From: Bdellovibrionales bacterium
GTDB taxonomy: Bacteria; Bdellovibrionota; Bdellovibrionia; Bdellovibrionales; UBA1609
Direction of reading: 5' to 3'
Assembly (NCBI GenBank): GCA_050246815.1
Contig: JBFWVI010000043.1
Span: forward strand, 1-24,785
Length of the DNA: 24,785 nucleotides
Shown here: positions 5,880-24,785 of the stretch, piece by piece
Numbering within the stretch: position 1 is the first letter of the stretch
How the letters are laid out: each line of letters begins with the position of its first letter
Notes under the pieces: generated by a model
Databases searched by the model: none
Told to the model about the DNA's origin: nothing
What the model saw: the letters and a program-made list of their open reading frames with translations, nothing else
Translations under genes and position numbers: made by a program

Positions 5880-5900
5880 ATAAACCCCAACCCAACCCTC

Positions 5901-5909
5901 ATTTTATCA
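5901..5909 (-). promoter_or_regulatory. Possible internal extended -10 promoter for the last operon gene
   Basis: Minus strand reads TGaTAAAAT about 21 nt upstream of ATG 5879. The -35 region is weak. Confidence 0.3.
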
Positions 5910-5944
5910 TTGGCCAACGGGGAACGCATGGAAAGGCTTGGGGA

Positions 5945-5959
5945 TTCTCAAATTGAGAC
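5945..5959. promoter_or_regulatory. Palindromic putative operator/UAS (TTCTCA-AAT-TGAGAC)
   Basis: Imperfect inverted repeat. Similar sites occur at 12478-12492 and 15398-15412. Confidence 0.45.
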
Positions 5960-5972
5960 ATTAAGACGGGGG

Positions 5973-7319: not shown

Positions 7320-7346
7320 TTGAGACCTCGTCGTTGCAAAAGCCTT

Positions 7347-8549
7347 TTAACGTGCGATCGCGGCATCGTTCAGCGGAGCCCCATCCAAGATCCAGTCGCG
7401 AATCACATCGCGAGAGGTCGCGGGTTCGATCAAGCCCGTGGGTGGCATTGGCGAACCGGGATCGTTGATCCGTTGATAGATGAAATTATCCGATAAAGTG
7501 AACGGCGTGACGAGTGTTTTGTCTGAATTTGCGGTCCTGCCCACGACGTTGTTATAGTTGTTGGGCCCCAAATTGTATCCGCCGGGCGGGGTGGGGTTAT
7601 CTGGACTGTGACAACTCACGCAGTTGGTGGCGAAAAAGCCGGCTCCATTGGTCAAAGCCGTGTAAGTGGTCGGTACAAAGTTGATTTCAGAGGCACCCAA
7701 AACACCCACCGCCAATTGAATGCGTAAGGGCTCCGTAATGGGTGAATCAACAGGGCGCGGAAAAAAATTGGCGCCTGGGGCTAGGCGGCGCGAGTTGTTA
7801 TTGGCCACGTTGGGAATGTAGCGATCCACATATAAATACGTGTCACCCGCGATTTTAACACCATTCACATAAACGGCGACGCCATTGATATAAGCCGAAC
7901 TGGCACCGGCATTAATAAAACGCAAATTTTCAATCTGATAAGCCGGCGGGCCGCCGGCGATGGTCACGCCGCGCACGGTGACAACCAGCTGTCCGCCTGC
8001 GTACGAGTTGGCTGCATCGACAAATTCGGTTCCGGTGTTCCAGGTCAGGTTTACGGTTTGGTTCAAGTTCGGGTTCGCATTTTTAGCGATTAACATTTTG
8101 GTTGGCGTAACTGTCGTTGGCACGTCAGGCACATCGCCATTGGCAGTTTGGCAAGCAGCGTATTGAGCTTTGGTGACGTTCCAAGATTGATTGATGCCAG
8201 CAACTGCGGCATTGTGTTGCGTGCCGGTGTAGGGCGGCTTGTGGGTGCTTGTCGCAAATTCAGAAATTTTATCAGCGGTTTTGCGTGAAAAGGCAGAAAA
8301 TGAGAGTGAGGCATTGTTAGAAGCAAAAAAACCGCTGCCCGGACCGACCGCATGGCAGTTGGCACAATTGGATTTTAGGAAGGGGTAAAAGCTTCTTTGA
8401 AAACCATCCACCAACACGCTTTGGCACGCTGAAAGACTCGAGAAATCCCCACTGCCCGAGGTGTGCACCGGGGAACAGTTATTGAAAAGAAGCGCAACTG
8501 CTGCGGCCGCTGTCACTAAGCTGAAAGTGGCCTTTAATTTTAACCCCAT
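7347..8549 (-). CDS. Diheme c-type cytochrome lipoprotein with a C-terminal planctomycete-cytochrome-like domain
   Basis: GGAGG RBS. Signal ending LFNNC (Cys25). CANCH (8366-8352) and CVSCH (7622-7608). C-terminal SPMPP...IRDWILDGA resembles PSCyt1-type domains. Confidence 0.83.
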   Translation of the reverse strand: MGLKLKATFSLVTAAAAVALLFNNCSPVHTSGSGDFSSLSACQSVLVDGFQRSFYPFLKSNCANCHAVGPGSGFFASNNASLSFSAFSRKTADKISEFATSTHKPPYTGTQHNAAVAGINQSWNVTKAQYAACQTANGDVPDVPTTVTPTKMLIAKNANPNLNQTVNLTWNTGTEFVDAANSYAGGQLVVTVRGVTIAGGPPAYQIENLRFINAGASSAYINGVAVYVNGVKIAGDTYLYVDRYIPNVANNNSRRLAPGANFFPRPVDSPITEPLRIQLAVGVLGASEINFVPTTYTALTNGAGFFATNCVSCHSPDNPTPPGGYNLGPNNYNNVVGRTANSDKTLVTPFTLSDNFIYQRINDPGSPMPPTGLIEPATSRDVIRDWILDGAPLNDAAIAR

Positions 8550-8605
8550 GACCCTTGTCCTCCACCCTTTTTATCCCGAAAACGTTCTTCCTATCGAGTG
8601 AACCT

Positions 8606-10180
8606 TTAAGCGATCTTCCTCATGAAGGCCTTTTGTGCGGCTGTGTAAGTTTTTAAGCCCGCCATTGTGCGATCAAATAGAGCTTCTCCGCCGCCACTCA
8701 GCATGCAGTAGTTATAGAATACGGCGGCTCCGCCATCATCCATGTTGGTGGTGAAGTTGCCGTTGCCGTTATCAACGTTGCCGCGGGCATTCAAGCCCCC
8801 GATTTGTGCGGGTAGTGCACTGACTGTCGCAACCGGTGCAGCTGGGCTGTAAGCGATAAAATGGTGCGCACCGTGACAGTTGCCGCTGTTGTCATCGTTG
8901 TTAAAGCTGCTGTTTGGCTGGCCACCGTCGCAAACCACCGCGCCGTTGGTGGTGATCTGAATGAACACTTTACTGTTCAAAAGACGAGCGGACTCAAGCA
9001 TGCGGCCTACACACAAACCGATGTTAAAGGCACCGGTTTCTTGGTCTTGGCGCGAGTTGTTGCCGCCCCCGTGAATGTCATAGCCACCGACGTTGATCGC
9101 GGCACCCGCGGCGTTACCGTTGAGCACGTTGACCACCATGGCCGAAATCGCGTCGTTGTTAAAATTGCCTGTGACAACGCCGTTGGTTTGGGCAAAGTTG
9201 TTCCAGATCGCGGCCATGCCGGCAATGTCGCGAGGATTGATGGCGGCGCCGCCACCTTCTAAGTTTTTAATATTCTGATCGGTTGCGCACTGAGCAAGCT
9301 TAGCCATTTGCGGACCGCCGTTTAGGCCTGTGATACTTGCCGCTTGAGCAGCATTCAGGCTTTGAATCGCTCGCCCCAAGCGAAGTTGTTGGGCCGTGGT
9401 CAACCGAGCCAAAGCGCCCGTGGGCTGAATGGCATTTAACACGCTATTGATATTGTTCACTTGCAACGGGCGCACCGAAGTGGTGATACCAAAAGTTGGC
9501 AAGCCGCTAATTCCTGTGTCAGCCTCGCCACCTTGGCGTAGGTAATTCAGTTTCGCACCCGCACGGCCGGCACGAGAAATCAGGCCCAATATACTTGAGC
9601 GTTGATCGCTATCGCCGTTGTCTCTGACGGGAACAGTGACCAGGGCGGCATTCGACAAGGTTGTCGCCTGCGCACTGGCCAGCAGGCCGCGCAAGAAGCC
9701 TTGGTTGGCGCCGTTGTCGAATAATTCGGCCCGATTGGCGAAAACGTTGTTCACAAATGCTGGTGCCGTGCCCAAGCCTAGACGGGTGTAGCTGTCTAAG
9801 CGATTTCCGTTCGTCATACGAGGTGTGACGGCAGACAAGGGTTGATAACCACCTGACAAGTGCAGGTTAATGAAGGGCGCCGGGCCAACACCAGCCGGTG
9901 GCGGCGTCGGGCATTCTCCCATCACTTGGGCGTAGGCCTCTTCACTCAAAGTACCTAAAATTGTGGCGATCGATGGCCCAAGCATATAGCCAACGGTTGA
10001 ATACACACCCGCCTCTAAGAGGGTGCGGCGAGTGATGGGCTTTCTTTCGTGTGGGTGATTGGCCAGGTGTTTTTGCAGTTGTTGCTTATGCAGTGCCTGA
10101 TCCGCTTCCAGATCTTTCTGGCGCTGTTTTCTCTCAAGAGCCTCTTCAAGTCTCTTCAGTCTGCTAATTTTGTTACCCAT
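8606..10180 (-). CDS. Tat-exported DUF1501-like protein
   Basis: Twin-arginine motif ITRRTLLE, a hydrophobic stretch and AYA cleavage site. FINLHLSGG and GGYDIH resemble the DUF1501 LxGG and GGWDTH motifs. ATG 10180 lies 8 nt after a GAGGGG RBS, so it is preferred over GTG 10189. Confidence 0.7.
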   Translation of the reverse strand: MGNKISRLKRLEEALERKQRQKDLEADQALHKQQLQKHLANHPHERKPITRRTLLEAGVYSTVGYMLGPSIATILGTLSEEAYAQVMGECPTPPPAGVGPAPFINLHLSGGYQPLSAVTPRMTNGNRLDSYTRLGLGTAPAFVNNVFANRAELFDNGANQGFLRGLLASAQATTLSNAALVTVPVRDNGDSDQRSSILGLISRAGRAGAKLNYLRQGGEADTGISGLPTFGITTSVRPLQVNNINSVLNAIQPTGALARLTTAQQLRLGRAIQSLNAAQAASITGLNGGPQMAKLAQCATDQNIKNLEGGGAAINPRDIAGMAAIWNNFAQTNGVVTGNFNNDAISAMVVNVLNGNAAGAAINVGGYDIHGGGNNSRQDQETGAFNIGLCVGRMLESARLLNSKVFIQITTNGAVVCDGGQPNSSFNNDDNSGNCHGAHHFIAYSPAAPVATVSALPAQIGGLNARGNVDNGNGNFTTNMDDGGAAVFYNYCMLSGGGEALFDRTMAGLKTYTAAQKAFMRKIA

Positions 10181-10219
10181 AAAACCCACCCCTCAAAAAT
10201 TTCAAGACCAATTAAAAAA

Positions 10220-10918
10220 CTACTGCTGCACGCCGTTCAAGGCCGAGGCCATGGCCGTGCATAGGAACAAAGCCGCTTCTTGTGTTTTATTGGCATTGTT
10301 CTGGTTGTCCAAAGCCATCGATTCATTCACGGCTGTGGTCAAAATTTGCCGTTCTTCCGCGGATTCATTGCGCTGCCAGATTGAGCGTGCAATGCGGTTG
10401 ATGGCCACACCTAAATTGGCATCATTCACGTTGTTGGCAGGGGCCGCAGCCAAGTTGATGCTGTTGAACAGCACTTTGTTGGCGGCATTGTTCGCGTTGC
10501 TTTCAAATGCGATACGGTCCAGGCACACCTGGCCGGCCAAAGTTGAAAACGCGAGTGCCAGAGGCGAACCCAGAGTTCCGGGTTGACCCGAATCAGAAAA
10601 GTTGCCCGACTGGCGGTTAAACTCATCGCGCGATTGGGTCGTCGGAGTCACCACTTGCAGAGCTGAAAACAGCGTGGCGTAAGTTTGACCCAAGATCGGT
10701 ACTCCCACAGTGGGGATGCCCGATGTTGCCGGTGGAATTTCAATCGTCGAAGGCAAGTCAAAACCTGCGCTAGAGTTGTCCAGGCTGTTGCCTTGCAAGC
10801 CCGTGCTGCAGGCAAAACCAAAAGTGCTCACGACAACAGCCAAGGTCACAATGCTGGCCAGTATTTTTAAGCTACTTAAGCCTTTATTCATCATCTGAAG
10901 TCTCGATTGTGTTTTCAT
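10220..10918 (-). CDS. Hypothetical lipoprotein of the cytochrome operon
   Basis: GAGGG RBS. Hydrophobic segment ending FGFAC. Two further Cys (GQVCLD, LFLCTAM). Helical, Asn/Ala-rich, no CxxCH. Confidence 0.72.
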   Translation of the reverse strand: MKTQSRLQMMNKGLSSLKILASIVTLAVVVSTFGFACSTGLQGNSLDNSSAGFDLPSTIEIPPATSGIPTVGVPILGQTYATLFSALQVVTPTTQSRDEFNRQSGNFSDSGQPGTLGSPLALAFSTLAGQVCLDRIAFESNANNAANKVLFNSINLAAAPANNVNDANLGVAINRIARSIWQRNESAEERQILTTAVNESMALDNQNNANKTQEAALFLCTAMASALNGVQQ

Positions 10919-10950
10919 AGTCTTACCCTCTATTCCTGAAGTGCCTGTTA

Positions 10951-12273
10951 CTACTGACCCGAGCAGGCGGCTGAAGTTGCGACTCTTTCAAAAAGCCAAC
11001 GTAATTTGTAATTGCCCATAGCCGGATTTTCCCAATCGCGCGCCAAAGCTCTTAAAGCTCCACCGGCTGCTTTTTCTGAAGCCGTGGGCGAGCGTCGGCA
11101 AACGTTTTCAAACACGTTTTCTGCAACACAGCGCGAGAATGCTTCTGAGCGGCTGAGCATTGTGCCGTAGGCATTCAGTCCGCGGCCCATAATCGGTGTA
11201 GTGACGGGACGGCCTTGGGCGTCGCGCCAGCCATAAAGTTCATTTAATTCAGGAGTGACGGCGTAGTTGACCCAGTTGTCGTTGGCGACCACTTGACCTT
11301 GGTTGAACTGACCTTCACCCAAACGGTTCAATTTATTAGCCACGCGAGTGGTGCCGTCATAAAGACCCGTGTTTAAATTCACCTGACCGTGTTTGACTTG
11401 GTTGTTGTCAAACTCACTGTAAGCAAAGGCCGAGCGATGTGCGTCCATATTGGAATGGCAGCCTTTGCAAGTCAGCAAGAAGGCCGAAGGATCGCCGCCC
11501 GGAGCGCGGCTGACGTCGCGGCCGACGCGGTCATCAGGCAGAGAGGTGCTCACCACTTCTTCCAAGGTATGGCAGGTTAGACGTTTCACCACTTTTTCAT
11601 AGCAGCGGCGATTGGTGCCGGCGTCGGCACAATCCGACATGAACTGACGTGTCGTCAACAGGCCTGCCGCATCCGGATGATTCACGCTGGCCTGGTTGTC
11701 GTCGACTATGGTTTGTTGGACCGAAACCAGGTTCGGGCGGATGTCCATGACAGGGTTTAAGGCCAAAGCGGCGTCCACGTCGTTATAGTGATTGTTTGAT
11801 CGGGCGATATCGTTGACCGGATTAATGCGTAGATTTGGAATATTTTCGAAGCGATAGACCGAATTGGTGGTCAATAGACCACGTGCATCCAAATCATCTT
11901 TGGTGAAACCGATCACGGTTGCAGTTAAATCATTCATCGGAACGCGGTAAACGCCAGCGCGAGTTGACATTTTCGAGCCCAGCAGGCGAACAGTTTGCGA
12001 ATAAAAGGTCGGCTGGTTCGTGGCGATACGGGCTGCGCCCATTTGATCACCCGCATTGATCAAGGCTTCCATATCCTTAATCACTTGCGAATCGATTGGT
12101 GCTTTTTGACCGGTCAATCTGTTGTAAAGAAAGGCTGCGCGGGTCCGTGAGGCAGATATGACGCCGTTGGCTTCATAAGCAACTTGGGCTGTTGCAGGAG
12201 TTGCAACTCCTAACAACACAACGCTAAGACAAATCTTCATGACTGTGCGTTTTAATTGCTTGTCCTGTCCCAT
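10951..12273 (-). CDS. Exported monoheme c-type cytochrome-like protein (reminiscent of DUF1588/DUF1585-type proteins)
   Basis: GGGGGA RBS. Sec signal ending PATA-Q. AAGLLTTR, GTNRR and TCKGCHSNMD (CxxCH at 11469-11455). C-terminal AFSRCVAENVF...YKLRWLFERVA. Confidence 0.75.
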   Translation of the reverse strand: MGQDKQLKRTVMKICLSVVLLGVATPATAQVAYEANGVISASRTRAAFLYNRLTGQKAPIDSQVIKDMEALINAGDQMGAARIATNQPTFYSQTVRLLGSKMSTRAGVYRVPMNDLTATVIGFTKDDLDARGLLTTNSVYRFENIPNLRINPVNDIARSNNHYNDVDAALALNPVMDIRPNLVSVQQTIVDDNQASVNHPDAAGLLTTRQFMSDCADAGTNRRCYEKVVKRLTCHTLEEVVSTSLPDDRVGRDVSRAPGGDPSAFLLTCKGCHSNMDAHRSAFAYSEFDNNQVKHGQVNLNTGLYDGTTRVANKLNRLGEGQFNQGQVVANDNWVNYAVTPELNELYGWRDAQGRPVTTPIMGRGLNAYGTMLSRSEAFSRCVAENVFENVCRRSPTASEKAAGGALRALARDWENPAMGNYKLRWLFERVATSAACSGQ

Positions 12274-12603: not shown

Positions 12604-14946
12604 CTAAACTTTAGCCTTCGTTTTACCTGGCAAAGCAGCGGCGGAAGCTCGTCCTTTTAAGACCTTAGGTCGTTTGATCTCGTCGACGCTCTGATAGGTG
12701 AATTTGAGACTGTTCTGCTCCAATGTGATTAAAACGCGGCCGCCATCGCTTAAACGTCCAAAAAGGATCTCATCAACCATGGGCTTTTTGAGGTATTCAT
12801 CCACGGTGCGTGCGAAAGGGCGTGCTCCATAGGCAGGATCGTAGCCTTTTTCAAAGAGCCATTCGTAAACCGCTGGCTGAACTTCAAGCTGAATGCGCTT
12901 GGCCAGCAGCTGAGCTTCAAGCTCATGTACAAACTTGGCGATCACCTGTAACAAAATGGGGCGATCAAGCGGTCTAAACTCCACCACGCTGTCTAGGCGG
13001 TTCAGGAACTCAGGCCTGAAGCTTCGTTTAATCGCGTCCACCGAGATGGCGGAGCTTCGATCTGGGTTAATGCCCAAGCCCCCCTTGGCGGCTTCGTGTG
13101 CACCTGCATTGCTAGTCATAATTAAAATCACATTTGAAAAATCACTGACCCGGCCGTTGCTGTCGGTCAATTTTCCCGAATCCATCACTTGCAGCAAGAT
13201 GTTGATTAAATCGGGGTGGGCCTTCTCAATTTCATCCATTAAAAGTACGGCGTAAGGGTTTTTGGTGGCCGCGTCGGTTAAAAGACCGCCATCTTCGTAG
13301 CCCACATAGCCGGGGGGCGCACCGACCAGCCGCGAGACCGCATGCTTTTCCATGTATTCCGACATATCAAAACGCAAAAACTTAACCCCTAAGGTCTCGG
13401 CCAATTGTTTGGCCACTTCGGTTTTGCCCACGCCTGTGGGGCCGGCGAACAGATAACTGCCGATGGGTTTGTGTTGGCGGTTCAATCCGGTGCGAGCCAA
13501 TTTAATGGAAGCGCCCAAGCGGTGAATCGCCTCATCTTGACCATAAATCACGGCTTTTAGACGAGGCTCAAGCTCCTTTAAACGGTCGCGATCCGTGTTT
13601 GAAACCGAGCGGGTGGGAACCTGCGCGATACTGGCGATCACACTTTCAACATCCTCAACCCTGGCCGTGATCACTTCGTCGTTTGCGGCACGTAAACGTA
13701 AGGCCGCACCCACTTCGTCGATCACGTCGATAGCTTTGTCGGGCAATTGCCGGCCATGAATATGTTTGGCGGCCAAATCGACAGCGGCCTGAATCACTTC
13801 ATTGGGGTAAGCTACGCCGTGATGTTCTTCGTAGCGGCTTTTCAGGCCACTTAAAATGGCTTTGGCCTGCTCTAAAGTGGGCTCTTGCACGTCGATCTTT
13901 TGAAATCGGCGAGCCAAAGCACGGTCTTTTTCAAAATGATTTTTATACTCTTTGTGCGTGGTCGAGCCGATGCAGCTTAAGGTGCCGTCGGCCAGAGCGG
14001 GTTTAAGCAGATTCGAGGCATCCATGGAGCCGCCTGATGTACTGCCGGCGCCCACCACCGTGTGGATTTCATCGATAAACAAAATCGCACCCGGTTGCGC
14101 TTTCATTTCGCGCAGTACGGCTTTCAGTCTTTCTTCAAAATCACCACGGTATTTGGTGCCTGCGATCAAAGCCCCCATGTCCAGCGAATAAATCACCGAG
14201 TTCAGCAGGCGCTTAGGCACTTGGCCAGCCACGATCCGCGCCGCTAGGCCGTCAGCAATGGCGGTTTTCCCCACGCCGGCCTCACCGATCAAAAGCGGAT
14301 TGTTTTTGGTGCGTCGGGCAAGAACTTGCACGGCTCTTTCCAGCACATCTTCGCGTCCCACCAAGGGATCCACTTTACCGGCACGGGCTTTCTCATTCAG
14401 ATTCACGGAGTACTGGCTTAAGGCCGAGGCGTTGGAGCGGGGGGTATCCCGGGTTTCCTGACTTTCCGAGCCCGTGGTGGTGGATGTGACCGGGGTAATG
14501 CCAAAGCGCGAAACCCCATGCGAGATATAATTGATCACATCATATTGAGAAATGCTCTGTTCCTCCAGAAAAAAGCGGGCATGCGAGTCGGTTTCGTGGA
14601 ACAAGGCCACCAGAAGATGGCCGCTGGTCACGGTTTTTTTGCCGGCGGCTTGCACCTGCACTGCCGCACGCTGCAGCAGGCGATGAAAAGCCAAGGTCAG
14701 CTCGGGTCGCCACTTTGGATCTAAATCATTTTCATTTAATTGAGGGCAGTGCTGTTGCAGATGAGCGCGCAGGCGCTGGATCAAACCATTCACGTCACCG
14801 CCGCACGCCGACACGATGCGGGCCGTCTCGGGGTCATGTTCAACCAAACTCAGTAAAACGTGTTCAAGGCTAACGTACTCATGCCGCTCTTGCAGCGCCA
14901 ACTGCACGGCTTTGTTTAAAGCTTGTTCCAGTTTGGGATCGAGCAT
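12604..14946 (-). CDS. clpA: ATP-dependent Clp protease ATP-binding subunit ClpA
   Basis: Clp N-domain (HEYVSLEHVLLSL). D1 GEAGVGKT, GTKYRGDFE, FIDEIH. D2 GPTGVGKT, GAPPGYVG, MDEIEKAH. No ClpB M-domain. Directly downstream of clpS. Confidence 0.96.
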   Translation of the reverse strand: MLDPKLEQALNKAVQLALQERHEYVSLEHVLLSLVEHDPETARIVSACGGDVNGLIQRLRAHLQQHCPQLNENDLDPKWRPELTLAFHRLLQRAAVQVQAAGKKTVTSGHLLVALFHETDSHARFFLEEQSISQYDVINYISHGVSRFGITPVTSTTTGSESQETRDTPRSNASALSQYSVNLNEKARAGKVDPLVGREDVLERAVQVLARRTKNNPLLIGEAGVGKTAIADGLAARIVAGQVPKRLLNSVIYSLDMGALIAGTKYRGDFEERLKAVLREMKAQPGAILFIDEIHTVVGAGSTSGGSMDASNLLKPALADGTLSCIGSTTHKEYKNHFEKDRALARRFQKIDVQEPTLEQAKAILSGLKSRYEEHHGVAYPNEVIQAAVDLAAKHIHGRQLPDKAIDVIDEVGAALRLRAANDEVITARVEDVESVIASIAQVPTRSVSNTDRDRLKELEPRLKAVIYGQDEAIHRLGASIKLARTGLNRQHKPIGSYLFAGPTGVGKTEVAKQLAETLGVKFLRFDMSEYMEKHAVSRLVGAPPGYVGYEDGGLLTDAATKNPYAVLLMDEIEKAHPDLINILLQVMDSGKLTDSNGRVSDFSNVILIMTSNAGAHEAAKGGLGINPDRSSAISVDAIKRSFRPEFLNRLDSVVEFRPLDRPILLQVIAKFVHELEAQLLAKRIQLEVQPAVYEWLFEKGYDPAYGARPFARTVDEYLKKPMVDEILFGRLSDGGRVLITLEQNSLKFTYQSVDEIKRPKVLKGRASAAALPGKTKAKV

Positions 14947-14949
14947 GTT

Positions 14950-15309
14950 TTAATCCTCTCGCTCTAGTATACACTTCAGCGGATGACGGTGGGTCCGGGA
15001 AAATTCATTGACCTGGTAGACTTTAGTCTCGGCCACTTCAAACGGATAAACCCCAGCTAGACCTGCGCCCTGATGATGAACTTCCAGCATAACCTTGGTC
15101 GCCTCGGGATCGGATTTATGAAAGAAGCGGCGCAAAATCAGGATCACAAAATCCATCGGGGTGTAATCGTCATTCAGCAGAATGACTTTGTAGAGGGCTG
15201 GGCGAGCGGTTTTTGGTCTGGATTCGACCAAAATCTGCCCCTCAGCGTCGTTTTGACCCCCTGTTTCATTGCCATTTTCAGCGGTCATCCGCAAAAAAAA
15301 ATGTCTCAT
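14950..15309 (-). CDS. clpS: ATP-dependent Clp protease adaptor ClpS
   Basis: [36 protein letters not shown]. The start may instead be ATG 15288. Confidence 0.96.
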
Positions 15310-15511: not shown

Positions 15512-16144
15512 ATGATGTTACGATCTAAGCGAGGTTTCTCGCTGGTAGAATTAATGATCGTGGTCGCCATTATTGGCATCTTGGCCGCGATTGCAATTCC
15601 AAACTTTGTGCGATTTCAATCTAAAGCTCGCCAGGCTGAAGCCCGTGCGGACTTAAGTGCGATCTATGCCGCACAAAAAGCTTTCAATGCCGAGTGGCAA
15701 CAGTTCTTCGGCGATTTCAACGAAATCGGCTATCGCCCAGAAGGTGCGTTTCGTTATGAACACGGCTTTGGCGCAGCTGGTATCGTCAGCCCAGCCAGCT
15801 ACACGGGCGCAATCGGTGCCGCAGCAGCGGCCATGGCTTTCAACACCCTGGGCAACTTAGGCCCTGTTGGTATGCAGCAGCCTTGCGGAGCGAACATTTT
15901 GCCGGCCACCATTACCGCCAACGTCTGCGGTGTGGAACGCACTTACGCGGGAGCTTCGATGTTGCCAGCTTTGGCAGGCAGCGTGACCGCGGCCAACGCA
16001 TTCATCGCCACAGCGGCGGGCAACATCGACAACGATGCCGCCTTTGATGCCTGGTCGATCGATCAAAACAAAGCGATCTCAGGCCCAAGCAACGTCATGG
16101 CTGCTCCGGTGGCCATCGGTAACGGCGGCGACTTAGATAACTAA
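15512..16144 (+). CDS. pilA: Type IVa major pilin
   Basis: Class III signal KRG/FSLVELMIVVAIIGILAAIAIPNF with E5. KARQAEA...L.AIY.AQKAF is typical of deltaproteobacterial PilA. C-terminal AxGNIDND...DxW. Strong GAGGGG RBS. Confidence 0.9.
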   Translation: MMLRSKRGFSLVELMIVVAIIGILAAIAIPNFVRFQSKARQAEARADLSAIYAAQKAFNAEWQQFFGDFNEIGYRPEGAFRYEHGFGAAGIVSPASYTGAIGAAAAAMAFNTLGNLGPVGMQQPCGANILPATITANVCGVERTYAGASMLPALAGSVTAANAFIATAAGNIDNDAAFDAWSIDQNKAISGPSNVMAAPVAIGNGGDLDN

Positions 16145-16184
16145 GTCTTTAGGCGTCGTTTAAATATTCAAATGGTTTTTTTTA

Positions 16185-16213
16185 AAGAGTCTTCCCCATG
16201 TGGGAGGACTCTT
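16185..16213 (+). terminator. Stem-loop after pilA (partial terminator or mRNA stabiliser)
   Basis: AAGAGTCTTCCC-CATGT-GGGAGGACTCTT, a 12 bp stem with one G:U pair and only a weak downstream U tract. Confidence 0.6.
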
Positions 16214-16227
16214 GTATTCTTGGGGGC

Positions 16228-16935
16228 ATGCTCAACCTGGTTTTTTTCATCTTGTCCATATTGGGTGTCGTCCTGACCTCCATCAGCAAAGAAGTCAAAG
16301 CGCCTAAATTCGATCCCGTGCTTTTACCGCCTCAGCAAATCGAACACTTCACGTTTAGCTATGACGAAATAATGGCCGATCTGCTTTGGCTGAGGGCAAT
16401 TCAATCCCTGGACTATTGCGGGAAAACCTTTATCACCGATGAACAGGTCAAGCTGGGCACAAATGTGTTTCGCATTTGCCAGGAAGGCTGGGTGTACCAG
16501 ATGCTGGACGCCGCCACCCGCATTACGCCTCGTTACCGCATTATTTATTCGCGCGGAGCGGTCGCTTTAAGCGTTTTGGTCAATGATCGTCAGGGTGCTT
16601 TACAGCTGTTTGAACGGGGCTCCAAAGTTTACCCGCAGGATTGGGTGATTCGTTATTATTCCGGCTTTCACCGCCTGATGGAAATGAACGATCCCGCCGG
16701 AGCCGCCGAAGATATGCGTATGGCGGGTCTTAATGGCGCCCCCAATTGGCTGACATTACTTGCAGCTCGTCTTTACAATGAGGCCGGTCAAGCCGAATTT
16801 GGATTGCGGGCTTTGAGTGATTTTTATGGCCAGGAGCCTTTTGGAAAATGGCCTGCCCGTGCGCAGGAGCGTTGGCGCGAACTTGAAACAAAGCTGGGTC
16901 GCAAAGTCACGCCACCCACTCCCACCCATAATTAA
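16228..16935 (+). CDS. Pilin-associated membrane-anchored TPR-like protein (Myxococcus PilG-like)
   Basis: N-terminal TM helix, ADLLWLRAIQ motif and helical repeats. Lies immediately after pilA. ATG 16228 is preferred because ATG 16198 is inside the hairpin loop. Confidence 0.7.
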   Translation: MLNLVFFILSILGVVLTSISKEVKAPKFDPVLLPPQQIEHFTFSYDEIMADLLWLRAIQSLDYCGKTFITDEQVKLGTNVFRICQEGWVYQMLDAATRITPRYRIIYSRGAVALSVLVNDRQGALQLFERGSKVYPQDWVIRYYSGFHRLMEMNDPAGAAEDMRMAGLNGAPNWLTLLAARLYNEAGQAEFGLRALSDFYGQEPFGKWPARAQERWRELETKLGRKVTPPTPTHN

Positions 16936-16946
16936 GGGGAAAACTC

Positions 16947-19829
16947 ATGTCGATTCGCTTGATGCAGATCCTGGTTTTGTTGTCGGGGTTTGCCGGCCTG
17001 CTTTATCAGGTGGTGTGGCAAAAGTACTTGGCGATTTTTTTGGGCAGTGACGCGCCGGCAACGGCTTTGATTTTGGCCGGTTTTTTTCTTTATATGTCTT
17101 TGGGCTACCAATTTTTCGGGCGCTTTATTCAGCGCCTGACCATCTCGCGCATTAAAATATACGCCTATTTAGAACTCGGCATTGGCGTTTGTGGCTTGCT
17201 GTCGCCGGATTTTTTCAGTCTTCTTCGCAATTATTACTGGGCCAGCAGCTGGCTGCAGTACCCCCTGTTGTCGGGCGCGATTCTGACATCGCTGTGTGTG
17301 GGATTGCCGGCTTTTCTAATGGGTGGAACGATTCCGGTTTTAGCCGAAGGATTGTCGCGCAGTTTTGAGCAAAGCCATCAAGTCCACGCCCGTGTGTACA
17401 GCCTCAACACCCTGGGCGCGTTTTTGGGGGCCCTGGTCACGACTTTTTATCTGATCGAGAAATTTGGTTTGCCCATTTGTCTGATGATGGGGGCCGTGAT
17501 CAACATCGCGGTATTTTTATTCTCGTGGCTGGTGGCGCGTTCGCAACCCGAAAAATTCACACCACCACAGCAAGACATGGGGGGGCGGGATTTACTCAAG
17601 CGCGATCAGTGGGTCATCCTGGGATTGTCTTTGCTGAGTGGTTTTTACGTATTTAGTTTTGAAAACCTGATTATTCGTATGGCCGGTGTGGCCTTGGGAA
17701 GTTCGGTTTACACATACGGGTTGGTGGTGGCCGCTTTTATTTTGGCCATCGCGGTGGGCAGCCATTTGAGCGAACGACTGGACAGCAGTCGGCGTCCGGC
17801 TATTTTAGCGCTGGTGCAAGGCGCTTTGTTGGTCACAAGTGTCGCACTTTATTTCTTGATTCCTTATTGGCCCGATTTATTTTTGCGCATCCGCTTTATT
17901 TTCAATCCAGTCACGATTAATTTTGAGCTCTACCAACAAGTGGTTTGGCTGGTCATGAGTCTTTTGCTGCTTGTGCCGGTTGCGTTGATGGGTATGAATT
18001 TACCGCTCTTGTTCGGGTATTTGCGGCGTAGCCAATACAATATTTCAGGAATCGTCGGTCGGCTGTATTCAATTAACTGTTTAGGGGCTGTTCTTGGTGC
18101 AACGATCGGCGGATATTTCGCGTTTCATTATTTGTCGTCGGCCATGATTTTTCGTTTGGATTTATTTTTGGTTTTGACGGGCCTTGTTCTTTTTATCTGG
18201 TTGGCACGCTTGAAACCACAATGGTATGCCTTGCCCGTTTTGGGGCTTTCGGTTTTACTTTTACCCGATTGGCACCTGAGGCAATTTTTGCCCGCACGGG
18301 CGTACATCGCCAAACCCATCGCGGTGGAAGAGACCTCATTCGAAAATTTTCGTAAAGAGATACTGGATTTAAAATTGGATGTGCAATTTCACCGTGAAGA
18401 TCCCAACTTGAATGTTGCCGTGGTGGGCATTGAGTCCATCCCCAATAACGACGGCGTCGTGCAAAAGGACGTTGGTCTTTATTTGAACGGCAAAGCCGAT
18501 GCGATTTACCCGGCCGATGAAACCGTGCGTGCGATGTTGCCGCTATTTGCGGCCAGCCTGGCGCCCAAGGCCGAACGCGCCGCCATCGTCGGGCTGGGGG
18601 CGGGTTTAAGCTTGGGCATCAGTGCCAATCTGCAAACCATGAAGCGCGTGGATGTGGTTGAAATTTCACCGGCCGTGGTCGAGGCCTTGCCCTATTTTGA
18701 AAAGTACATTCCAGGACTTAAGCAGAATCAGGATAAAACACGCTTACTGGTCGGGGACGCCTTTCAGGTGCTCAGGCGACAGGCCGGCCAATACGACTTT
18801 ATTTTGTGCGAACCCACTAACCTTTGGATCATGGGCGTCGACAAGCTTTACACCGCCGATTTTTTTGAGTTGGTGGCGGGGCAACTAGCGCCAGAAGGCC
18901 TTTTTGCGCTTTGGATTCCGATGTCTACGTTAAGCCACGAAAGTTTTTCTTTGATTCTAACCACTTTAAAGACGGTCTTCCCCTATGTGACCATTTGGAA
19001 TTCAGGGTTTGGCACAGTGTCAGCAATTTCTTCGAAAGCTCCGCTGAAAATGCCTGCCTTAGATGTTTTGCGCGCCCGTTTTCAAGACAACAAACCCTTT
19101 TTCGACCGTTTGAAAATCACTCAGCCCGAAACCTTATTGGCGTTGCAAATCGCCACGCCTTGGGTTTTGAACGGTTTGAGTCAGCGTGACCCGCGCGTGC
19201 ATACCGTTGAATATCCGATGCTGACTTATTCTGCGGCGCGCACCTTGTTCACCAAGATCGGAACGAACTTCGACGTATTTTTAAGCGAGCGGGTGCTGCG
19301 CGCAGGTCCCATCCAAGACCCGCTCAATCAATTTGTGGCCGACGGGGTGAAGTTCTCGAAAGAGGTTCTGGCCGACGTGGTTTCAATTTATCAGCGTTAT
19401 GGTCGCATCAGCTCGGGGTTGTTTGAATTAAAATGGCTTTACATGGCCGACGAGGCTGGGGTTTCACAAGCCAAAAATAGTCGATTTCAAGCCGTGACTT
19501 CGCTTCGTTCGGTGATCGAAAACAAACCTTTGCCACCAGTCACACCCGAGCCTTCAAACATGTCCAAGGTCGAAAGACTTTTGCGGGCCTATCAGCGTGC
19601 CCGACTACTGGGTTTTCAGGCCTCACCAGCCATTGTGATGAAAAACTATGATTGGGACTGCCAGAGCTTCTTGTGCGCTCGCTTGGCTCTGGGGCTTCTA
19701 AGTGAATTTTTGCCCCTTTCTGAGGTCAAATCGTTTCGTGAAAAAGATCTCAACAAGCCCTCGGACCGACAAGTTATTTTTCAAGCGCTGAAAGCCTGGG
19801 CCGGCTCTGAGGACGCACAAACAAAATAG
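16947..19829 (+). CDS. Fused multi-pass membrane (MFS-like)/spermidine-synthase-like SAM-binding protein
   Basis: SGFAGLLYQVVW and repeated LMG...P.L and Y..N.LGA..G motifs across about 12-13 TM helices. These are followed by LYLNGKADA, AIVGLGAGLS, VDVVEISPAV, GDA and YDFILCEP. Confidence 0.88.
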   Translation: MSIRLMQILVLLSGFAGLLYQVVWQKYLAIFLGSDAPATALILAGFFLYMSLGYQFFGRFIQRLTISRIKIYAYLELGIGVCGLLSPDFFSLLRNYYWASSWLQYPLLSGAILTSLCVGLPAFLMGGTIPVLAEGLSRSFEQSHQVHARVYSLNTLGAFLGALVTTFYLIEKFGLPICLMMGAVINIAVFLFSWLVARSQPEKFTPPQQDMGGRDLLKRDQWVILGLSLLSGFYVFSFENLIIRMAGVALGSSVYTYGLVVAAFILAIAVGSHLSERLDSSRRPAILALVQGALLVTSVALYFLIPYWPDLFLRIRFIFNPVTINFELYQQVVWLVMSLLLLVPVALMGMNLPLLFGYLRRSQYNISGIVGRLYSINCLGAVLGATIGGYFAFHYLSSAMIFRLDLFLVLTGLVLFIWLARLKPQWYALPVLGLSVLLLPDWHLRQFLPARAYIAKPIAVEETSFENFRKEILDLKLDVQFHREDPNLNVAVVGIESIPNNDGVVQKDVGLYLNGKADAIYPADETVRAMLPLFAASLAPKAERAAIVGLGAGLSLGISANLQTMKRVDVVEISPAVVEALPYFEKYIPGLKQNQDKTRLLVGDAFQVLRRQAGQYDFILCEPTNLWIMGVDKLYTADFFELVAGQLAPEGLFALWIPMSTLSHESFSLILTTLKTVFPYVTIWNSGFGTVSAISSKAPLKMPALDVLRARFQDNKPFFDRLKITQPETLLALQIATPWVLNGLSQRDPRVHTVEYPMLTYSAARTLFTKIGTNFDVFLSERVLRAGPIQDPLNQFVADGVKFSKEVLADVVSIYQRYGRISSGLFELKWLYMADEAGVSQAKNSRFQAVTSLRSVIENKPLPPVTPEPSNMSKVERLLRAYQRARLLGFQASPAIVMKNYDWDCQSFLCARLALGLLSEFLPLSEVKSFREKDLNKPSDRQVIFQALKAWAGSEDAQTK

Positions 19830-19880: not shown

Positions 19881-19968
19881 TAGGACCTAGCCCAGAGCTT
19901 TTTTTCATCGAGTGACGGCCTCAAAAGCGAAACAGAATCAAATCTTGAAAACTATTTGAGGTGGAGTC

Positions 19969-22698
19969 ATGTCACTCGACTGGAAAATTTTATCTTTTTG
20001 TATCTGCGCAGTCTTGCTGCCCAGTGAAAGTTGGGGGGCAGCCGATGGACCAAAGGTCGCACCTCGCAAACCAAAACCAGTCCTAGCACAGAAGGCTTCT
20101 CGCTCAGCGGCGACGAACAGGGATCAGAGCATTTCGATCGCGCCACCCCTTAAGGGTTGGTTCTCTGATGAGACGTATCAGGGCCGAGATATCGAGCTGA
20201 GGTACAACAGTAAAACCGGTCAATTTTATATAAAAAATCAAAATGATCCGATGTTTGAGATCGTGGGAATGCCCGCCTGGCGGGACTTGACCCGCCAGGA
20301 AATCGTATTCGCGGTGAACATGCTGCCGACAATGGATTTAACGGAGTCTGATAATTCAAGATTTGTTATGGTGAAAATCCATGCGCGAACATTTCTTGTG
20401 GATTTGGCAAATCAAAATGTGCGCGGGGAGATCGAACTGCCGAAAATTCAAAGTATGCAGAATATTGAATTTTTTTATTCGCTCGAACTCGGCGCCACGG
20501 TTATTGGCAGTGATGCCTACACCTATTGGCTGACAGAAGAAGACGCACCAGATCCTGATGTGAAAGAATCCTTCTCTCGCATCTCTTCGCAATCCAACAA
20601 TGTCGCACGAAGAGCCTATGTGGGTTTACGAAAGTACATTGAGAAAAAGTTGCTCGAACGACCACGCGCCAAAGTCGATTTGCCCACGGACTCATCCGTA
20701 AAAATTGCCAGTGGACGTGATGGCAACCCAGCCGAAAATGCAACGCGCCTGCGTGAGACGAAATTAAACTCAGCTGCAGAACGCTTTCCGCCGATACCTA
20801 AAATCATTGTGCCAGATCCGAATGGTAAGGATGTGGAGGCTGTCCAGTTGGTCGCAGGCTTTACCGAGGATGCGATTCAAGAGGCGGTAAACTCAGGTGC
20901 ACATTACACTCAAGACGCGGCGATGCGAGCCCTTGAAGATAAAATTCTGATCAGCTTAATGAAGCCTGAGCAGCCGGGAGTAAAGCTATTGGGCCCTTCT
21001 GGTGCGGGAAAATCCGAACTGATCCGCAGGTTGATGCTCAGATTCGCAAGTGGTGATTTACCAGATGAACTGATGAATTATCGTGTGCGCACTTTTAGCG
21101 GGGCCTCTTTGGATGCAGGAACCAAATATGTGGGGACCGTTGAATCAAAAATAAGGGCGATGATGGCCTTATCGCGCGAAGTGCCGATCCTATGGGTCGT
21201 GGACGAGGCGCAAACCATTGTCAATGCCGGCGTTTCAGAGGGGCGCACTTCAAACGTATTGCAAAACCTAAAGTCGGCTTTGCGCAAAGGGGAAATGCGA
21301 ATGATCCTGAGCACAACCGAACCCGAGTGGCAGGAGTATTTCTCTCATGATACGGCATTTGACGGTCGTTTTGCCCTTGTCCGTTTTGACCCACCTTCTG
21401 ATCAACAAACAAAAGTCGTGGTGCAGGAATGGTTGAAACGATTCAACTACGCAAAGATGAGTGACCAGATTTTGATGAAGATGATTGAACTGTCGAACCG
21501 ATATTCGACCTTGCCGACACAGCCGAATCGCGCGATTCGTTTTGCGGAGCATTTGTTCACCACCCGAAAATTCCACAAGCAGTCTGGACCCTTGTCCACT
21601 TCTGATATCACTTTAACCGCTCAGGATTTTTATCAGGTAGACCCCGCAGAATTTGATGCCGCGGTGTCTGCACAAACCTTGGAGCGGCTTGAGAGAGAAT
21701 TTGCCAATATTGTCGGGCAAGACCAGGCCAAACAAAAGCTTCTCATTGCAACCAAGCAAATTCATGCCGGAGTACAGGACTGGACCAAACCGCGTTACCG
21801 TTACATTTTGGCCGGACCGGTCGGGCAGGCGAAAACCATGATCGCGATGAAATTGGCGAAAGCTTTGAATCGCCCGTTTTGCCGAATACTGATGAGTAAA
21901 TATACATCAATTCATCAGACGGAATTATTGCTGCATGAAATTGGTAAATGTGTCATAGCGAACCAATTTTCATTTCTCTTTCTGGATGAGTACGAAAAAA
22001 CTCCGATTGCCGTGCAAGAGTCGCTTCTTAGCGTCTTCGACTATGGCGAGCTTCGCTATATCAACCACGACAACAATCGCTCGCAAGTGGTATCGCTTCG
22101 TTTGAACAACGCCAGCATTCTGATCGCCACAAACGCCGGCGGTGATTTTATTTCGAAGGCTTCGTCTGGGGTCGTGCGGATGGGTTTTGACCAGAATGTG
22201 CCGGGCGCGAATTTAAAAACCATGGATCATCAAGATCTGCGTCAGGCACTGCAGGATGATGGATTCAGTGAAGCGATTTTGGACCGAATGGCAGGGGTCT
22301 TGGCATTTGGTTATCTGGATGAAAGCTTGATGCGGGAGCTTGTCAGGGGCCGGGCGCAGCAGATTCGAACAGAAATCAGCGAAAAATTGGCGCGTCCGAT
22401 AGACGTCATCAATTGGGACGATTTTATGGACCAAATAACGAAAGAGGTCTTGTTACGGCTGGAATCGACAAATCGATCCAATCGCGAAGTCGATCGAATT
22501 GTTGATCACGCATTACGGGTTGGCCTGCTTCCTTTTATGGTCAGTGGGGGGGATGCAAAACCCCTCAAACTGATCTGGACGGGGGTTGGGTTTGAGGCGG
22601 CTCGAGCAAATCAGGCCTGCGACCAGGCTCTAGGCGCCAAGCGCAGCACCCCTCAACCTTCAAGGCAAAAGGCCAAGGCGACAGCGAAAAAACGCTGA
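19969..22698 (+). CDS. Divergent ClpA/ClpB-family double AAA+ ATPase with an N-terminal signal peptide
   Basis: GAGGTGGAG RBS. Signal-like MSLDWKILSFCICAVLLPSESWGA. D1 GPSGAGKS, GTKYVG, VVDEAQ. D2 IVGQDQA, GPVGQAKT, FLDEYEK, IATNAG, RMGF. Confidence 0.85.
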   Translation: MSLDWKILSFCICAVLLPSESWGAADGPKVAPRKPKPVLAQKASRSAATNRDQSISIAPPLKGWFSDETYQGRDIELRYNSKTGQFYIKNQNDPMFEIVGMPAWRDLTRQEIVFAVNMLPTMDLTESDNSRFVMVKIHARTFLVDLANQNVRGEIELPKIQSMQNIEFFYSLELGATVIGSDAYTYWLTEEDAPDPDVKESFSRISSQSNNVARRAYVGLRKYIEKKLLERPRAKVDLPTDSSVKIASGRDGNPAENATRLRETKLNSAAERFPPIPKIIVPDPNGKDVEAVQLVAGFTEDAIQEAVNSGAHYTQDAAMRALEDKILISLMKPEQPGVKLLGPSGAGKSELIRRLMLRFASGDLPDELMNYRVRTFSGASLDAGTKYVGTVESKIRAMMALSREVPILWVVDEAQTIVNAGVSEGRTSNVLQNLKSALRKGEMRMILSTTEPEWQEYFSHDTAFDGRFALVRFDPPSDQQTKVVVQEWLKRFNYAKMSDQILMKMIELSNRYSTLPTQPNRAIRFAEHLFTTRKFHKQSGPLSTSDITLTAQDFYQVDPAEFDAAVSAQTLERLEREFANIVGQDQAKQKLLIATKQIHAGVQDWTKPRYRYILAGPVGQAKTMIAMKLAKALNRPFCRILMSKYTSIHQTELLLHEIGKCVIANQFSFLFLDEYEKTPIAVQESLLSVFDYGELRYINHDNNRSQVVSLRLNNASILIATNAGGDFISKASSGVVRMGFDQNVPGANLKTMDHQDLRQALQDDGFSEAILDRMAGVLAFGYLDESLMRELVRGRAQQIRTEISEKLARPIDVINWDDFMDQITKEVLLRLESTNRSNREVDRIVDHALRVGLLPFMVSGGDAKPLKLIWTGVGFEAARANQACDQALGAKRSTPQPSRQKAKATAKKR

Positions 22699-22760
22699 AA
22701 AATTATATATTCAAAGGTGCGCCGGGGCTTGAAGCGTACCTAATTGAAATATTTAAGCCT

Positions 22761-22793
22761 TCAAGTTGACGCCCTAGGTTTAAACCTCATATT
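22761..22793 (+). promoter_or_regulatory. Putative heat-shock (RpoH-like) promoter of dnaJ
   Basis: TCAAGTTGAC-N14-CCTCATATT resembles the sigma32 consensus CTTGAA-N13-17-CCCCATnT and matches the site before dnaK. Confidence 0.65.
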
Positions 22794-22807: not shown

Positions 22808-23917
22808 ATGGATAGAGATTACTACGAAGTGCTCGGGGTGGGCCGAACGGCCGACGCTGACACCATCAAAAAGGCCTATCGCAAGCTCGCTTTGCAATAC
22901 CACCCGGATCGCAATCCCGGTGATAAGGCCGCCGAGGACAAGTTCAAAGAGGCCGCCAAGGCCTATGAAATCCTTTCGGATCAAGACAAACGCATGCGCT
23001 ATGACCAGTTTGGCCACGCCGGGGTCAACGGACCTGGTTTTGGTGGGCCCGGGGCCCAAGGCTTTGGCGATGTCGGGGATATTTTTGAGGCCTTTGGAGA
23101 TATTTTCGGCGACATTTTTGGTGGCCAGGGCCGAGGTCAAGGGCGCACGCGTTCACGCTCGGTCCGAGGTGCGGATCTGCGCTATGTGATGGAAGTGGGT
23201 TTAAAAGAAGTTTTGACCGGCGTGAAGAAGGACATCGAGTTCACTGCCGAAAACGAGTGCAAAACTTGTGATGGCAAAGGAGCCGAGCCCGGAACAAGTG
23301 TCGAGACCTGTGGCACCTGCGGAGGGTCCGGCCAAGTGGTTCGCCAGCAGGGCTTCTTCTCTATGGCCAGCACTTGTGGCACTTGCCGTGGCCGTGGTGA
23401 AGTGATCAAAAAGCCGTGCAAGGTTTGTCGTGGTAGCGGCCGTGAATCCAGCAAGAGAAAGCTGGTGGTCAATGTTCCGCCCGGTGTGAACAATGGAACC
23501 CAACTGCGTTTGAGCGGTGAGGGCGAAGGTGGAGCCCGAGGGGGACCGCCAGGGGATCTTTATGTTGAAATTCGGGTGCGGGCAGACAAGCGTTTCCAGC
23601 GTCAGGATGATCACTTGGTTGCGGAACTTCAGATTTCGTACTTGCAGGCTCTTTTGGGGGCCGAAATCGAGTTTGAAACTTTGACCGGGCCTGAAAAGGT
23701 GCAAGTTCCCAAAGGCTCGCAACCGGGGGAATTGATCCGCCTTGCGGCTCAGGGGTTGCCCTCGCTGCGTTCCGGGCGTCGAGGGGATTTGGTTTTACAG
23801 TTGACCGTGGAGTTTCCGCACAAGCTTGGCAAAGAGGAAGAGCGGTTATTACGAGAGATTGCCCAGGCCAAGGGCGAAACCGTAGCAGAACCAGGTAAAG
23901 GGTTTTTTAAGCGTTAA
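22808..23917 (+). CDS. dnaJ: Chaperone protein DnaJ
   Basis: J-domain with HPD, G/F-rich linker, four CxxCxGxG repeats and C-terminal substrate-binding domain. Confidence 0.98.
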
Positions 23918-23950
23918 TAACGTATCGCATTAAAACAAAACGGGCAGCGG

Positions 23951-23983
23951 TCAACTTGACGAAATTCAGAGTGACCTCAAATT
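23951..23983 (+). promoter_or_regulatory. Putative heat-shock (RpoH-like) promoter of dnaK
   Basis: TCAACTTGAC-N14-CCTCAAATT, with the same spacing as the dnaJ site. Confidence 0.65.
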
Positions 23984-24024
23984 GAAGTCGTACCCGTTAA
24001 GCAGGGGCGAAGGAGACAGTTTAT

Positions 24025-24785
24025 ATGAGTAAAATCATTGGTATCGATTTAGGAACGACCAACTCGGTGGTCGCAATTATGGAAGGTGGCGAGCCCAAAG
24101 TGTTAGTCAACGAAGAAGGTGGTCGCACGACCCCCTCGATTGTGGCGTACACCAAAGATGGCGATCGTCTGGTGGGTCAAATCGCCAAACGCCAAGCGGT
24201 CACCAACCCCGAAAACACGATTTATTCGGCGAAGCGTTTTATCGGCCGCCGTTTTGACGAGGTTCAAAAAGAGGCCGAACTGGTGCCTTATAAAGTAGTG
24301 AAAAAAGGCAATCAGGATTCGGCCTTCCAAGTGCAGGGCAACACGGCCTCGCCTGAGGAAATTTCGGCTGCTATCTTAGGCAAGCTCAAGAAAGTGGCCG
24401 AGGACTATTTGGGTCATGAAGTGACAGAGGCCGTAATCACGGTTCCGGCTTACTTCAACGATGCCCAACGCCAAGCCACTAAAGACGCCGGCCGCATTGC
24501 GGGTCTGGATGTGAAACGAATCATCAACGAGCCGACCGCGGCCGCATTGGCCTACGGATTGGACAAGAAAAAAGATCAAACCATCGCGATCTACGATTTC
24601 GGGGGCGGTACTTTTGATATTTCCGTCCTGGAAGTGGGCGATAATGTGGTCGAAGTCAAAGCCACCAATGGTGACACTCACCTGGGCGGTGACAACTTTG
24701 ACCAAACGATCTTGGTGTGGATGATCGACGAATTCAAAAAAGACCAGGGCATCGACCTTAAAAACGACAAAATGGCTTTGCAGCG
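24025..24785 (+). CDS. dnaK: Chaperone protein DnaK (Hsp70), 3'-truncated by the window edge
   Basis: [81 protein letters not shown]. Absent from the ORF track because it has no stop in the window. Confidence 0.98.

Follow-up and report, generated by a model that had tools for sequence, protein, structure and literature searches.

The gene at 19969..22698 (+) of the window (the whole 24,785-nucleotide stretch analysed: Bdellovibrionales bacterium, assembly GCA_050246815.1, contig JBFWVI010000043.1) encodes a 909-amino-acid (aa) class I Clp/Hsp100-like ATPase that begins with a signal-peptide-like leader and has lost the pore loop of its second AAA+ module (D2). Leader-bearing, D2-loop-deleted Clp ATPases of this kind are a real, undescribed variant family; searches of open-licence PMC and bioRxiv papers gave no description of such a bacterial protein. 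Their export is a well-supported prediction from sequence. The preferred reading, held at a probability of about 0.4, is that of a secreted unfoldase that would run on prey ATP and, in members bearing an IGF-type tripeptide, on prey ClpP. The features of the gene are as follows.

19969..22698 (+): open reading frame (ORF) of the 909-aa leader-bearing class I Clp/Hsp100-like ATPase (ORF call; profile, structure and fold matches)
19958..19966 (+): Shine-Dalgarno-like GAGGTGGAG upstream of the first ATG (sequence)
19969..20040 (+): predicted Sec/signal peptidase I (SPase I) signal peptide, aa 1-24 (heuristic)
20041..20778 (+): linker (low confidence) and beta-strand-rich N-domain in place of Clp_N (structure model; no family match)
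20809..21648 (+): first AAA+ module (D1), without middle domain (alignment)
20992-21015 (+): D1 Walker A GPSGAGKS (sequence)
21124-21135 (+): D1 pore loop KYVG (sequence)
21193-21207 (+): D1 Walker B (alignment)
21313-21318 (+): D1 sensor-1 (alignment)
21367-21369 (+): D1 arginine (R) finger (alignment)
21652..22578 (+): D2 AAA+ module (alignment); its catalytic set is Walker B DE, sensor-1 N722, R773 and sensor-2 R839 (alignment)
21814-21837 (+): D2 Walker A GPVGQAKT (sequence)
within 21892-21987 (+): D2 pore-loop deletion (alignment)
22180..22188 (+): tripeptide MGF, placed in a flexible loop where ClpP-docking Clps have IGF/IGL (alignment, model)
22618..22632 (+): CDQAL, the C-terminal Cys tag (C-x-x-[LAVI]-[LF] in the family), overlooked by the initial annotation

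The layout is that of class I Clp/Hsp100 proteins, with two tandem Clp-type AAA+ modules carrying Walker A and B motifs, sensors and R fingers. On recheck of the sequence the positions first assigned to the D1 Walker A, KYVG, the D2 Walker A and MGF were all as given; D1, described as intact, proved so at its Walker A, KYVG and catalytic positions. D2 had been described as altered: the GPVGQAKT Walker A, the loss of GYVG and the 12-aa deletion in the MSxY-to-Walker-B segment (32 aa vs 44 aa in the window's ClpA) stand, but the catalytic K, DE, N, R finger and sensor-2 R are all kept. A dead D2 was considered and rejected; the G-to-A change in its Walker A (the AKT variant) occurs in 7/127 family members, and all catalytic residues stay. 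The unrecognised sequence said to replace the Clp N-domain was confirmed as such: Clp_N (PF02861) was looked for in the 909-aa protein and not found, and its N-domain gave no Pfam match and no Atlas match and is unlike the family's main N-domain cluster. The AlphaFold2 model (21-row alignment) is confident for D1 and D2, poor for residues 16-269 and disordered at 735-749 (the MGF site); its best Foldseek matches are ClpC/ClpP and ClpAP complexes.

Each catalytic residue of the two rings is retained by 88-98% of family members: Walker A K in 120/124, DE in 109/124 and the R finger in 116/124 for D1; K in 125/127, DE in 120/127, sensor-1 N in 124/127, the R finger in 116/121 and sensor-2 R in 111/121 for D2. 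This retention of ATPase residues in both rings implies a need for ATP. The D1 loop has the form aromatic-x-G in 91/124 members, its middle residue being hydrophobic or small in 74 members and R, as in ClpA, in only 10. In ClpA the D1 KYR loops engage substrate and alone translocate unfolded chains into ClpP, and the D2 GYVG loops are required for unfolding stable native folds (PMC8666677). D2 of the family is probably an active ATPase lacking its grip loop, and the pattern of conservation suggests that substrate grip has moved from D2 to D1.

The family was delimited by a search of 1.84 billion representatives; the 149 non-self matches among the 150 listed were sorted, together with the query, by D2 loop length alone, and the loop deletion was present in 127 clusters vs 23 canonical Clps. 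Word-indexed homolog searches gave canonical Clps only, among the 120 matches listed, and an Atlas look-up of the relative P0174 led to generic AAA clusters. In an order-level scan of 301 genomes, GYVG was missing from 23 of the top 30 loci (own included); 19 of the 22 non-own loci among these 23 are 5'-complete, and all 19 begin with a signal-like leader (18 pass the heuristic at the chosen start, 1 at a downstream start). Cys lies close to the C-terminus in 21/21 3'-complete non-own loci. A phylum sample, whose loci overlap the earlier sets, gave a match above 429 bits in 30/401 genomes (own included, 16 families), all 30 loci being without the D2 loop; five further matches scored 412-422 bits, and the loop count covers the 30 above them. 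Three same-genus genomes (74-96% complete) gave no family-level match. In a 38-row tree (quick search; 23/127 members), 22/23 family rows, query included, are split from all canonical Clps by a branch 1.2 long (Shimodaira-Hasegawa-like approximate likelihood ratio test, 100), row P0262 being the outlier; the tree does not settle which Clp class is the parent. Within flanks of 1.5-6 kb the window shares no neighbour gene with any relative, and sharing elsewhere was seen only between close genomes. The patchy, stand-alone distribution, together with the variable N-domain, fits accessory secreted enzymes.

The commonest family N-domain (66/112 members; L122:3175-3840 (-) and relatives) stands in tandem repeats in some members. 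The model built for it from relatives (predicted local distance difference test, 82.6) is nearly all beta; it gave no Foldseek match at E<=0.001, and weak beta-propeller rows at most.

The leader of the 909-aa protein has a 13-aa uncharged run and a cleavage-type site near S-W-G/A; scored heuristically, it shows the n-h-c order and the small residues at -3/-1 of a Sec/SPase I leader, with no lipobox and no twin arginine. By the same heuristic a signal-peptide-like leader was found in 88/112 full-length members vs 1/23 canonical Clps, several of the leader-negative members being truncated gene calls. Among 90 family leaders the n-region is positive in 76, a lipobox occurs in 1 and a twin-arginine (Tat) motif in 0; [AVS]xA is present in 68/90 vs 23% of the background. 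The 15 residues after the leaders have an average charge of -0.6, and the n-region charge is above that of these residues in 68/90 leaders and below it in 7. Cys makes up 80/65,139 residues (0.12%) of the AAA core in the family vs 101/20,342 (0.50%) in canonical Clps. Export had been put forward for this one protein; at family level the prediction is supported by the cleavage-type leaders, the Cys-poor core and a C-terminal tag common to leader-bearing proteins.

The consensus of that tag is C-x-x-[LAVI]-[LF], and its Cys is followed by 8 residues in the median; a Cys lies within the last 45 residues in 108/121 complete members vs 111/1984 internal windows. In the host genome (G000; 3.4 Mb, 99.1% complete) the tag is enriched at the C-termini of leader-bearing proteins, 26/912 of which have it vs 27/6146 internal windows; proteins without leader carry it in 15/1185 cases, with no enrichment (p=0.11). 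A Pfam scan of 22 proteins gave matches for 8, namely 2 trypsin+PDZ proteins, 2 alpha/beta hydrolases, 1 M3 peptidase and 3 AAA+ proteins (one of the last, C34, being without tag). The tag may be a sorting or tethering signal. Members from the f25 genomes (L135, L136, L137, L138, L145) have no Cys tag and end in an aromatic motif, for example MYN, MYQ or YFN, instead, possibly a lineage-specific alternative C-terminal signal.

A genome-wide count of leader-bearing AAA+ proteins, proposed as a check by the initial annotation, gave 3 of 27 AAA-matching ORFs in G000: the 909-aa protein and those on contigs C20 and C34. The C20 protein (G000:C20:20931-24281 (+); also L050:8932-12282) is 1116 aa long and combines a leader with two AAA+ modules, a protease domain of the M41 family (FtsH-type, HEFGH) and the C-terminal Cys tag; judged by these domains it is a candidate exported, self-contained ATP-dependent protease. 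The C34 protein (in G000:C34:12354-21659 (+); L066) is a 795-aa leader-bearing ClpB-like protein with a degenerate D1, a coiled coil, an intact D2 GYVG and no Cys tag; three large ORFs with leaders lie upstream of it on the same strand. A 5'-truncated ORF for an AAA+ protein of 1656 aa or more (G000:C73:4-4974 (+); L049) carries the Cys tag at its end.

At the docking position the strict motif [ILMV]GF was found in 40/121 members vs 17/1093 background windows; the tripeptide is mostly IGF in relatives and MGF in the query. A broader motif is present in 48/64 long, 7/14 medium and 1/43 short loops (background 47/977), with 21 changes over a 120-tip tree; long loops thus tend to go with the motif and shortened ones with its absence. 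In a co-occurring strain variant, non-synonymous changes stand beside MGF and only synonymous ones inside it. IGF loops dock at the H-sites of ClpP and open its pore (PMC9035409). One ClpP was found in G000; it is without leader (cytoplasmic) and lies in a clpP-clpX operon, and none of the 26 ClpP matches in 22 family-bearing genomes (two of them fragments) bears a leader. With no exported ClpP found, a ClpP partner of the 909-aa protein, if this is exported, must be foreign. Modelled as a complex with two G000 ClpP copies, D2 scored 0.01 (mark 0.32), which speaks neither for nor against docking. Of the ClpP docking first ascribed to MGF, the position of the tripeptide, the motif frequency far above background and the exclusively cytoplasmic location of the ClpP found speak for it, but it does not extend to the about half of the family that is motif-less; docking by the MGF loop of the query is plausible.

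An IGF-like tripeptide was also seen in the tail or in a small-domain insertion of the motif-less members L032, P0194, P0217, P0235, P0237, P0286, P0313 and L017. A move of IGF into the tail was considered and rejected as not significant (12/81 motif-less vs 2/40 motif-bearing members, p=0.14).

Compared with known systems, the 909-aa protein has its best NCBIfam and PDB sequence match in ClpA (TIGR02639; E. coli ClpAP, PDB 6uqe, 7uiv), at 168.5 bits vs a cut-off of 993.15 bits and vs 1052 for the window's own ClpA, to which it is 24% identical. Like ClpA, it has two AAA+ modules without a middle domain (linker median 67 aa in the family vs 68 in ClpA) and a docking-type tripeptide in the same place; unlike ClpA, the family protein is without Clp_N and D2 GYVG, has KYVG in place of KYRG in D1, and bears a leader and a Cys tag. 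ClpC (S. aureus MecA/ClpC/ClpP, PDB 9gi1) is the top Foldseek match (E 4e-37) and has an xGF-type docking motif in common with it, but ClpC has a middle domain (linker 124-125 aa, two references), Clp_N and GYVG, and the present protein bears a leader. The class I core is common to ClpB/Hsp104, and short-loop members resemble ClpB in having no ClpP-docking motif; the coiled-coil middle domain of ClpB is absent (linker 194 aa in the ClpB of G000 vs the family median of 67), and G000 encodes a separate canonical ClpB. ClpV/TssH differs as well (149 vs 885 bits), and VipB, the type VI sheath protein, gave no match in G000, the control being positive in E. coli. On the features compared, the protein would work like a class I Clp but falls outside ClpA, ClpB, ClpC and ClpV.

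Torsins are signal-sequence-bearing relatives of Clp D2 without an aromatic pore loop; they differ in being eukaryotic proteins of the endoplasmic reticulum lumen, with a single AAA+ module and a need for an activator. Plasmodium HSP101 (ClpB2) likewise carries a signal peptide. It is a class I Clp that acts at a host interface outside the cytoplasm, in PTEX, the translocon for exported proteins in Plasmodium; its eukaryotic origin, middle domain, D2-loop grip and dedicated pore partners have no counterpart found here (PMC7355975). Lig E is, like the 909-aa protein, a bacterial signal-peptide-bearing ATP-dependent enzyme; unlike a ring motor it is a small ligase with a Michaelis constant for ATP that is micromolar or lower (10.64898/2026.03.22.713542). 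HSP101 and Lig E are the nearest precedents.

According to the preferred reading, the 909-aa protein would be exported by Sec and cleaved by SPase I, which is very probable; it would be released past the predator periplasm, perhaps by way of one of the four secretin systems (four secretins were found in G000), the Cys tag serving as sorting or tethering signal, and would assemble into hexamers where prey cytosol is exposed. D1 would be the sole substrate-gripping ring, D2 an ATP-hydrolysing scaffold bearing the docking loop and the variable N-domain a substrate selector; prey ATP would power pulling on prey proteins, and docking of the MGF loop on prey ClpP would speed their digestion. Only loop-keeping members would dock on ClpP; the others may be ClpB-like or feed co-secreted proteases. 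Export, conserved ATPase sites and a ClpP-type loop are most simply reconciled by action in the prey cytosol. In the epibiotic B. exovorus the inner membrane of the prey is disrupted inside a sealed feeding junction (PMC12428579), so that secreted enzymes would meet prey ATP and ClpP; B. bacteriovorus has a large Sec secretome (PMC7174725). A fuller scenario is rather unlikely as a whole: Bdellovibrionota would have evolved a prey-delivered, prey-ATP-run unfoldase in which the motor function has passed from D2 to D1 and which docks on prey ClpP, so that the prey breaks down its own proteins, and the tag would label about two dozen proteins per genome for a secretion or sorting route not yet described.

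Several points weigh against this proposal. The initial annotation had made its reading conditional on a predatory host; the host's place among relatives of the Bdellovibrionales was confirmed, and a predatory lifestyle is presumed from the order only. Because the family's sequences share ancestry, the counts are not independent of one another. The leaders were scored by an in-house heuristic rather than SignalP, and that of the query is atypical, with an n-region of net charge 0 and a basic linker behind it. The docking motif is absent from 81/121 members in its strict form and from 65 members in its broad form; with about half of the family lacking it, hijack of ClpP cannot be the only job of the family. 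A motor gripping by D1 only may be weak, since ClpA needs its D2 loops for stable folds. The genome-wide tag pattern was picked after inspection of the data, and two looser Cys-tail patterns gave weak (44/1034 vs 37/1426) or no enrichment. Prey ATP should drop fast after killing. The prey cytoplasmic membrane is described as staying intact in B. bacteriovorus (PMC13689555).

The best surviving alternative, though an improbable one, is an exported chaperone or remodeller in the predator's own periplasm or on its surface, supplied with ATP by an unknown route and docking a non-ClpP partner by MGF. It draws on the same export evidence, on the two further leader-bearing AAA+ proteins and the Cys-tagged giant AAA+ ORF of G000, and on Lig E as a leader-bearing ATP-dependent enzyme. 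The patchy gene, not found in the three same-genus genomes and without conserved neighbours, is unlike housekeeping machinery. A Clp motor requires far more than nanomolar ATP. Extracellular ATP in the Lig E study is nanomolar (10.64898/2026.03.22.713542). A search for an ATP/ADP translocase (PF03219) gave no match, though the control was equally silent.

A cytoplasmic protein, begun at a downstream start or N-anchored with its ATPase inside, would be an extra ClpA/ClpX-like partner of the host's own ClpP; this would resolve the ATP and ClpP problems together, the only ClpP found being cytoplasmic, and is favoured by the basic residues behind the query's hydrophobic run and by a competing public gene call (P0001, 815 aa) that begins at Met95, with which the leader would be lost. 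No ribosome-binding site was seen before the Met95 ATG, however, and the strong GAGGTGGAG ends 2 nt short of the ATG at 19969; over codons 1-94 the ORF frame outscores the other two (-0.02 vs -0.53 and -0.55), albeit at a level below the remainder of the gene, and the leader is also present in relatives, which supports the first ATG. The downstream start, named by the initial annotation as a possible refutation, is disfavoured on these grounds; its N-anchored cytoplasmic ATPase is likewise disfavoured, a 13-aa uncharged run being short for an anchor, the n-regions of relatives' leaders being mostly more positive than what follows, the core being Cys-depleted and the tag being common to trypsin+PDZ proteases. 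The cytoplasmic explanation is thus less probable still.

There is little likelihood of an effector-translocon motor that, docked to a membrane pore, would thread secreted proteins into prey. HSP101 in PTEX threads cargo over the host-facing membrane and docks by its C-terminal domain, and the family combines a conserved tag at the C-terminus with a docking-type loop; but the grip of HSP101 lies in the D2 pore loops (PMC7355975), deleted in the family, and the flanks inspected held no conserved pore or adaptor gene, unlinked partners being possible. The tag, found also on unrelated hydrolases, fits cargo better than a motor. Equally slight is the chance of a delivered non-threading poison that joins prey ClpA/ClpB/ClpC hexamers, as suggested at first, or occupies and opens ClpP like acyldepsipeptide (ADEP) antibiotics: the D2 pore loop is deleted in 127/127 members (the defining feature of the set) and tail tripeptides are commoner, not significantly, in motif-less members, but the low identity to ClpA, the branch of 1.2 changes per site to canonical Clps, the D1 pore aromatic, the conserved catalytic residues with R fingers in both rings, as in a working homo-oligomer, and the many members without any IGF disfavour it.

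Clp/Hsp100 motors in bacteria are cytoplasmic machines, little ATP being present in the periplasm. More than 100 diverged clusters with both ATPase sites behind a leader would mean either that secreted machines reach prey ATP or that an unknown extracytoplasmic ATP supply exists; the route of Bdellovibrio-like predators to prey cytoplasmic contents is a listed open question (PMC10225642). With its D2 pore loop lost and a GYVG-type loop in D1, the protein further amounts to a naturally occurring experiment on how Clp motors work, and the common Cys tag offers a handle for listing the cargo of a possible new secretion route.

In run X1 one contig spans 19500-22163 with zero differences from the window; X1 may itself be the source of the window. 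Strain variants (runs X1 and X2) are confined to 20009-20122, 22134-22258 and 22605-22771, that is, to the linker that follows the leader, the loop with MGF and the tail beyond the Cys tag, none being present elsewhere in the gene. Promoter and terminator scans were no better than chance.

The 909-aa gene is flanked by clpS-clpA and dnaJ-dnaK-like genes, a linkage not conserved in relatives; a functional tie to either pair was rejected because these neighbours are common to no relative. An Hsp70 search gave 5 matches. The dnaJ-dnaK-like genes lie at 22808-24785 (+), and the canonical clpA (12604-14946) stands behind a clpS-like ORF, both within 12604-15309 (-). Between these and the 909-aa gene, 15512-19829 (+) holds genes for a type IV pilin, for a 245-aa product with no Pfam match and for a membrane protein of 960 aa carrying a fused spermidine-synthase-like domain. 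Further upstream, 4839-12273 (-) is an envelope-type ORF cluster with a 527-aa ORF bearing a twin-arginine-like leader, two ORFs without Pfam match, and two ORFs with several CxxCH motifs, one of them with cytochrome c matches.

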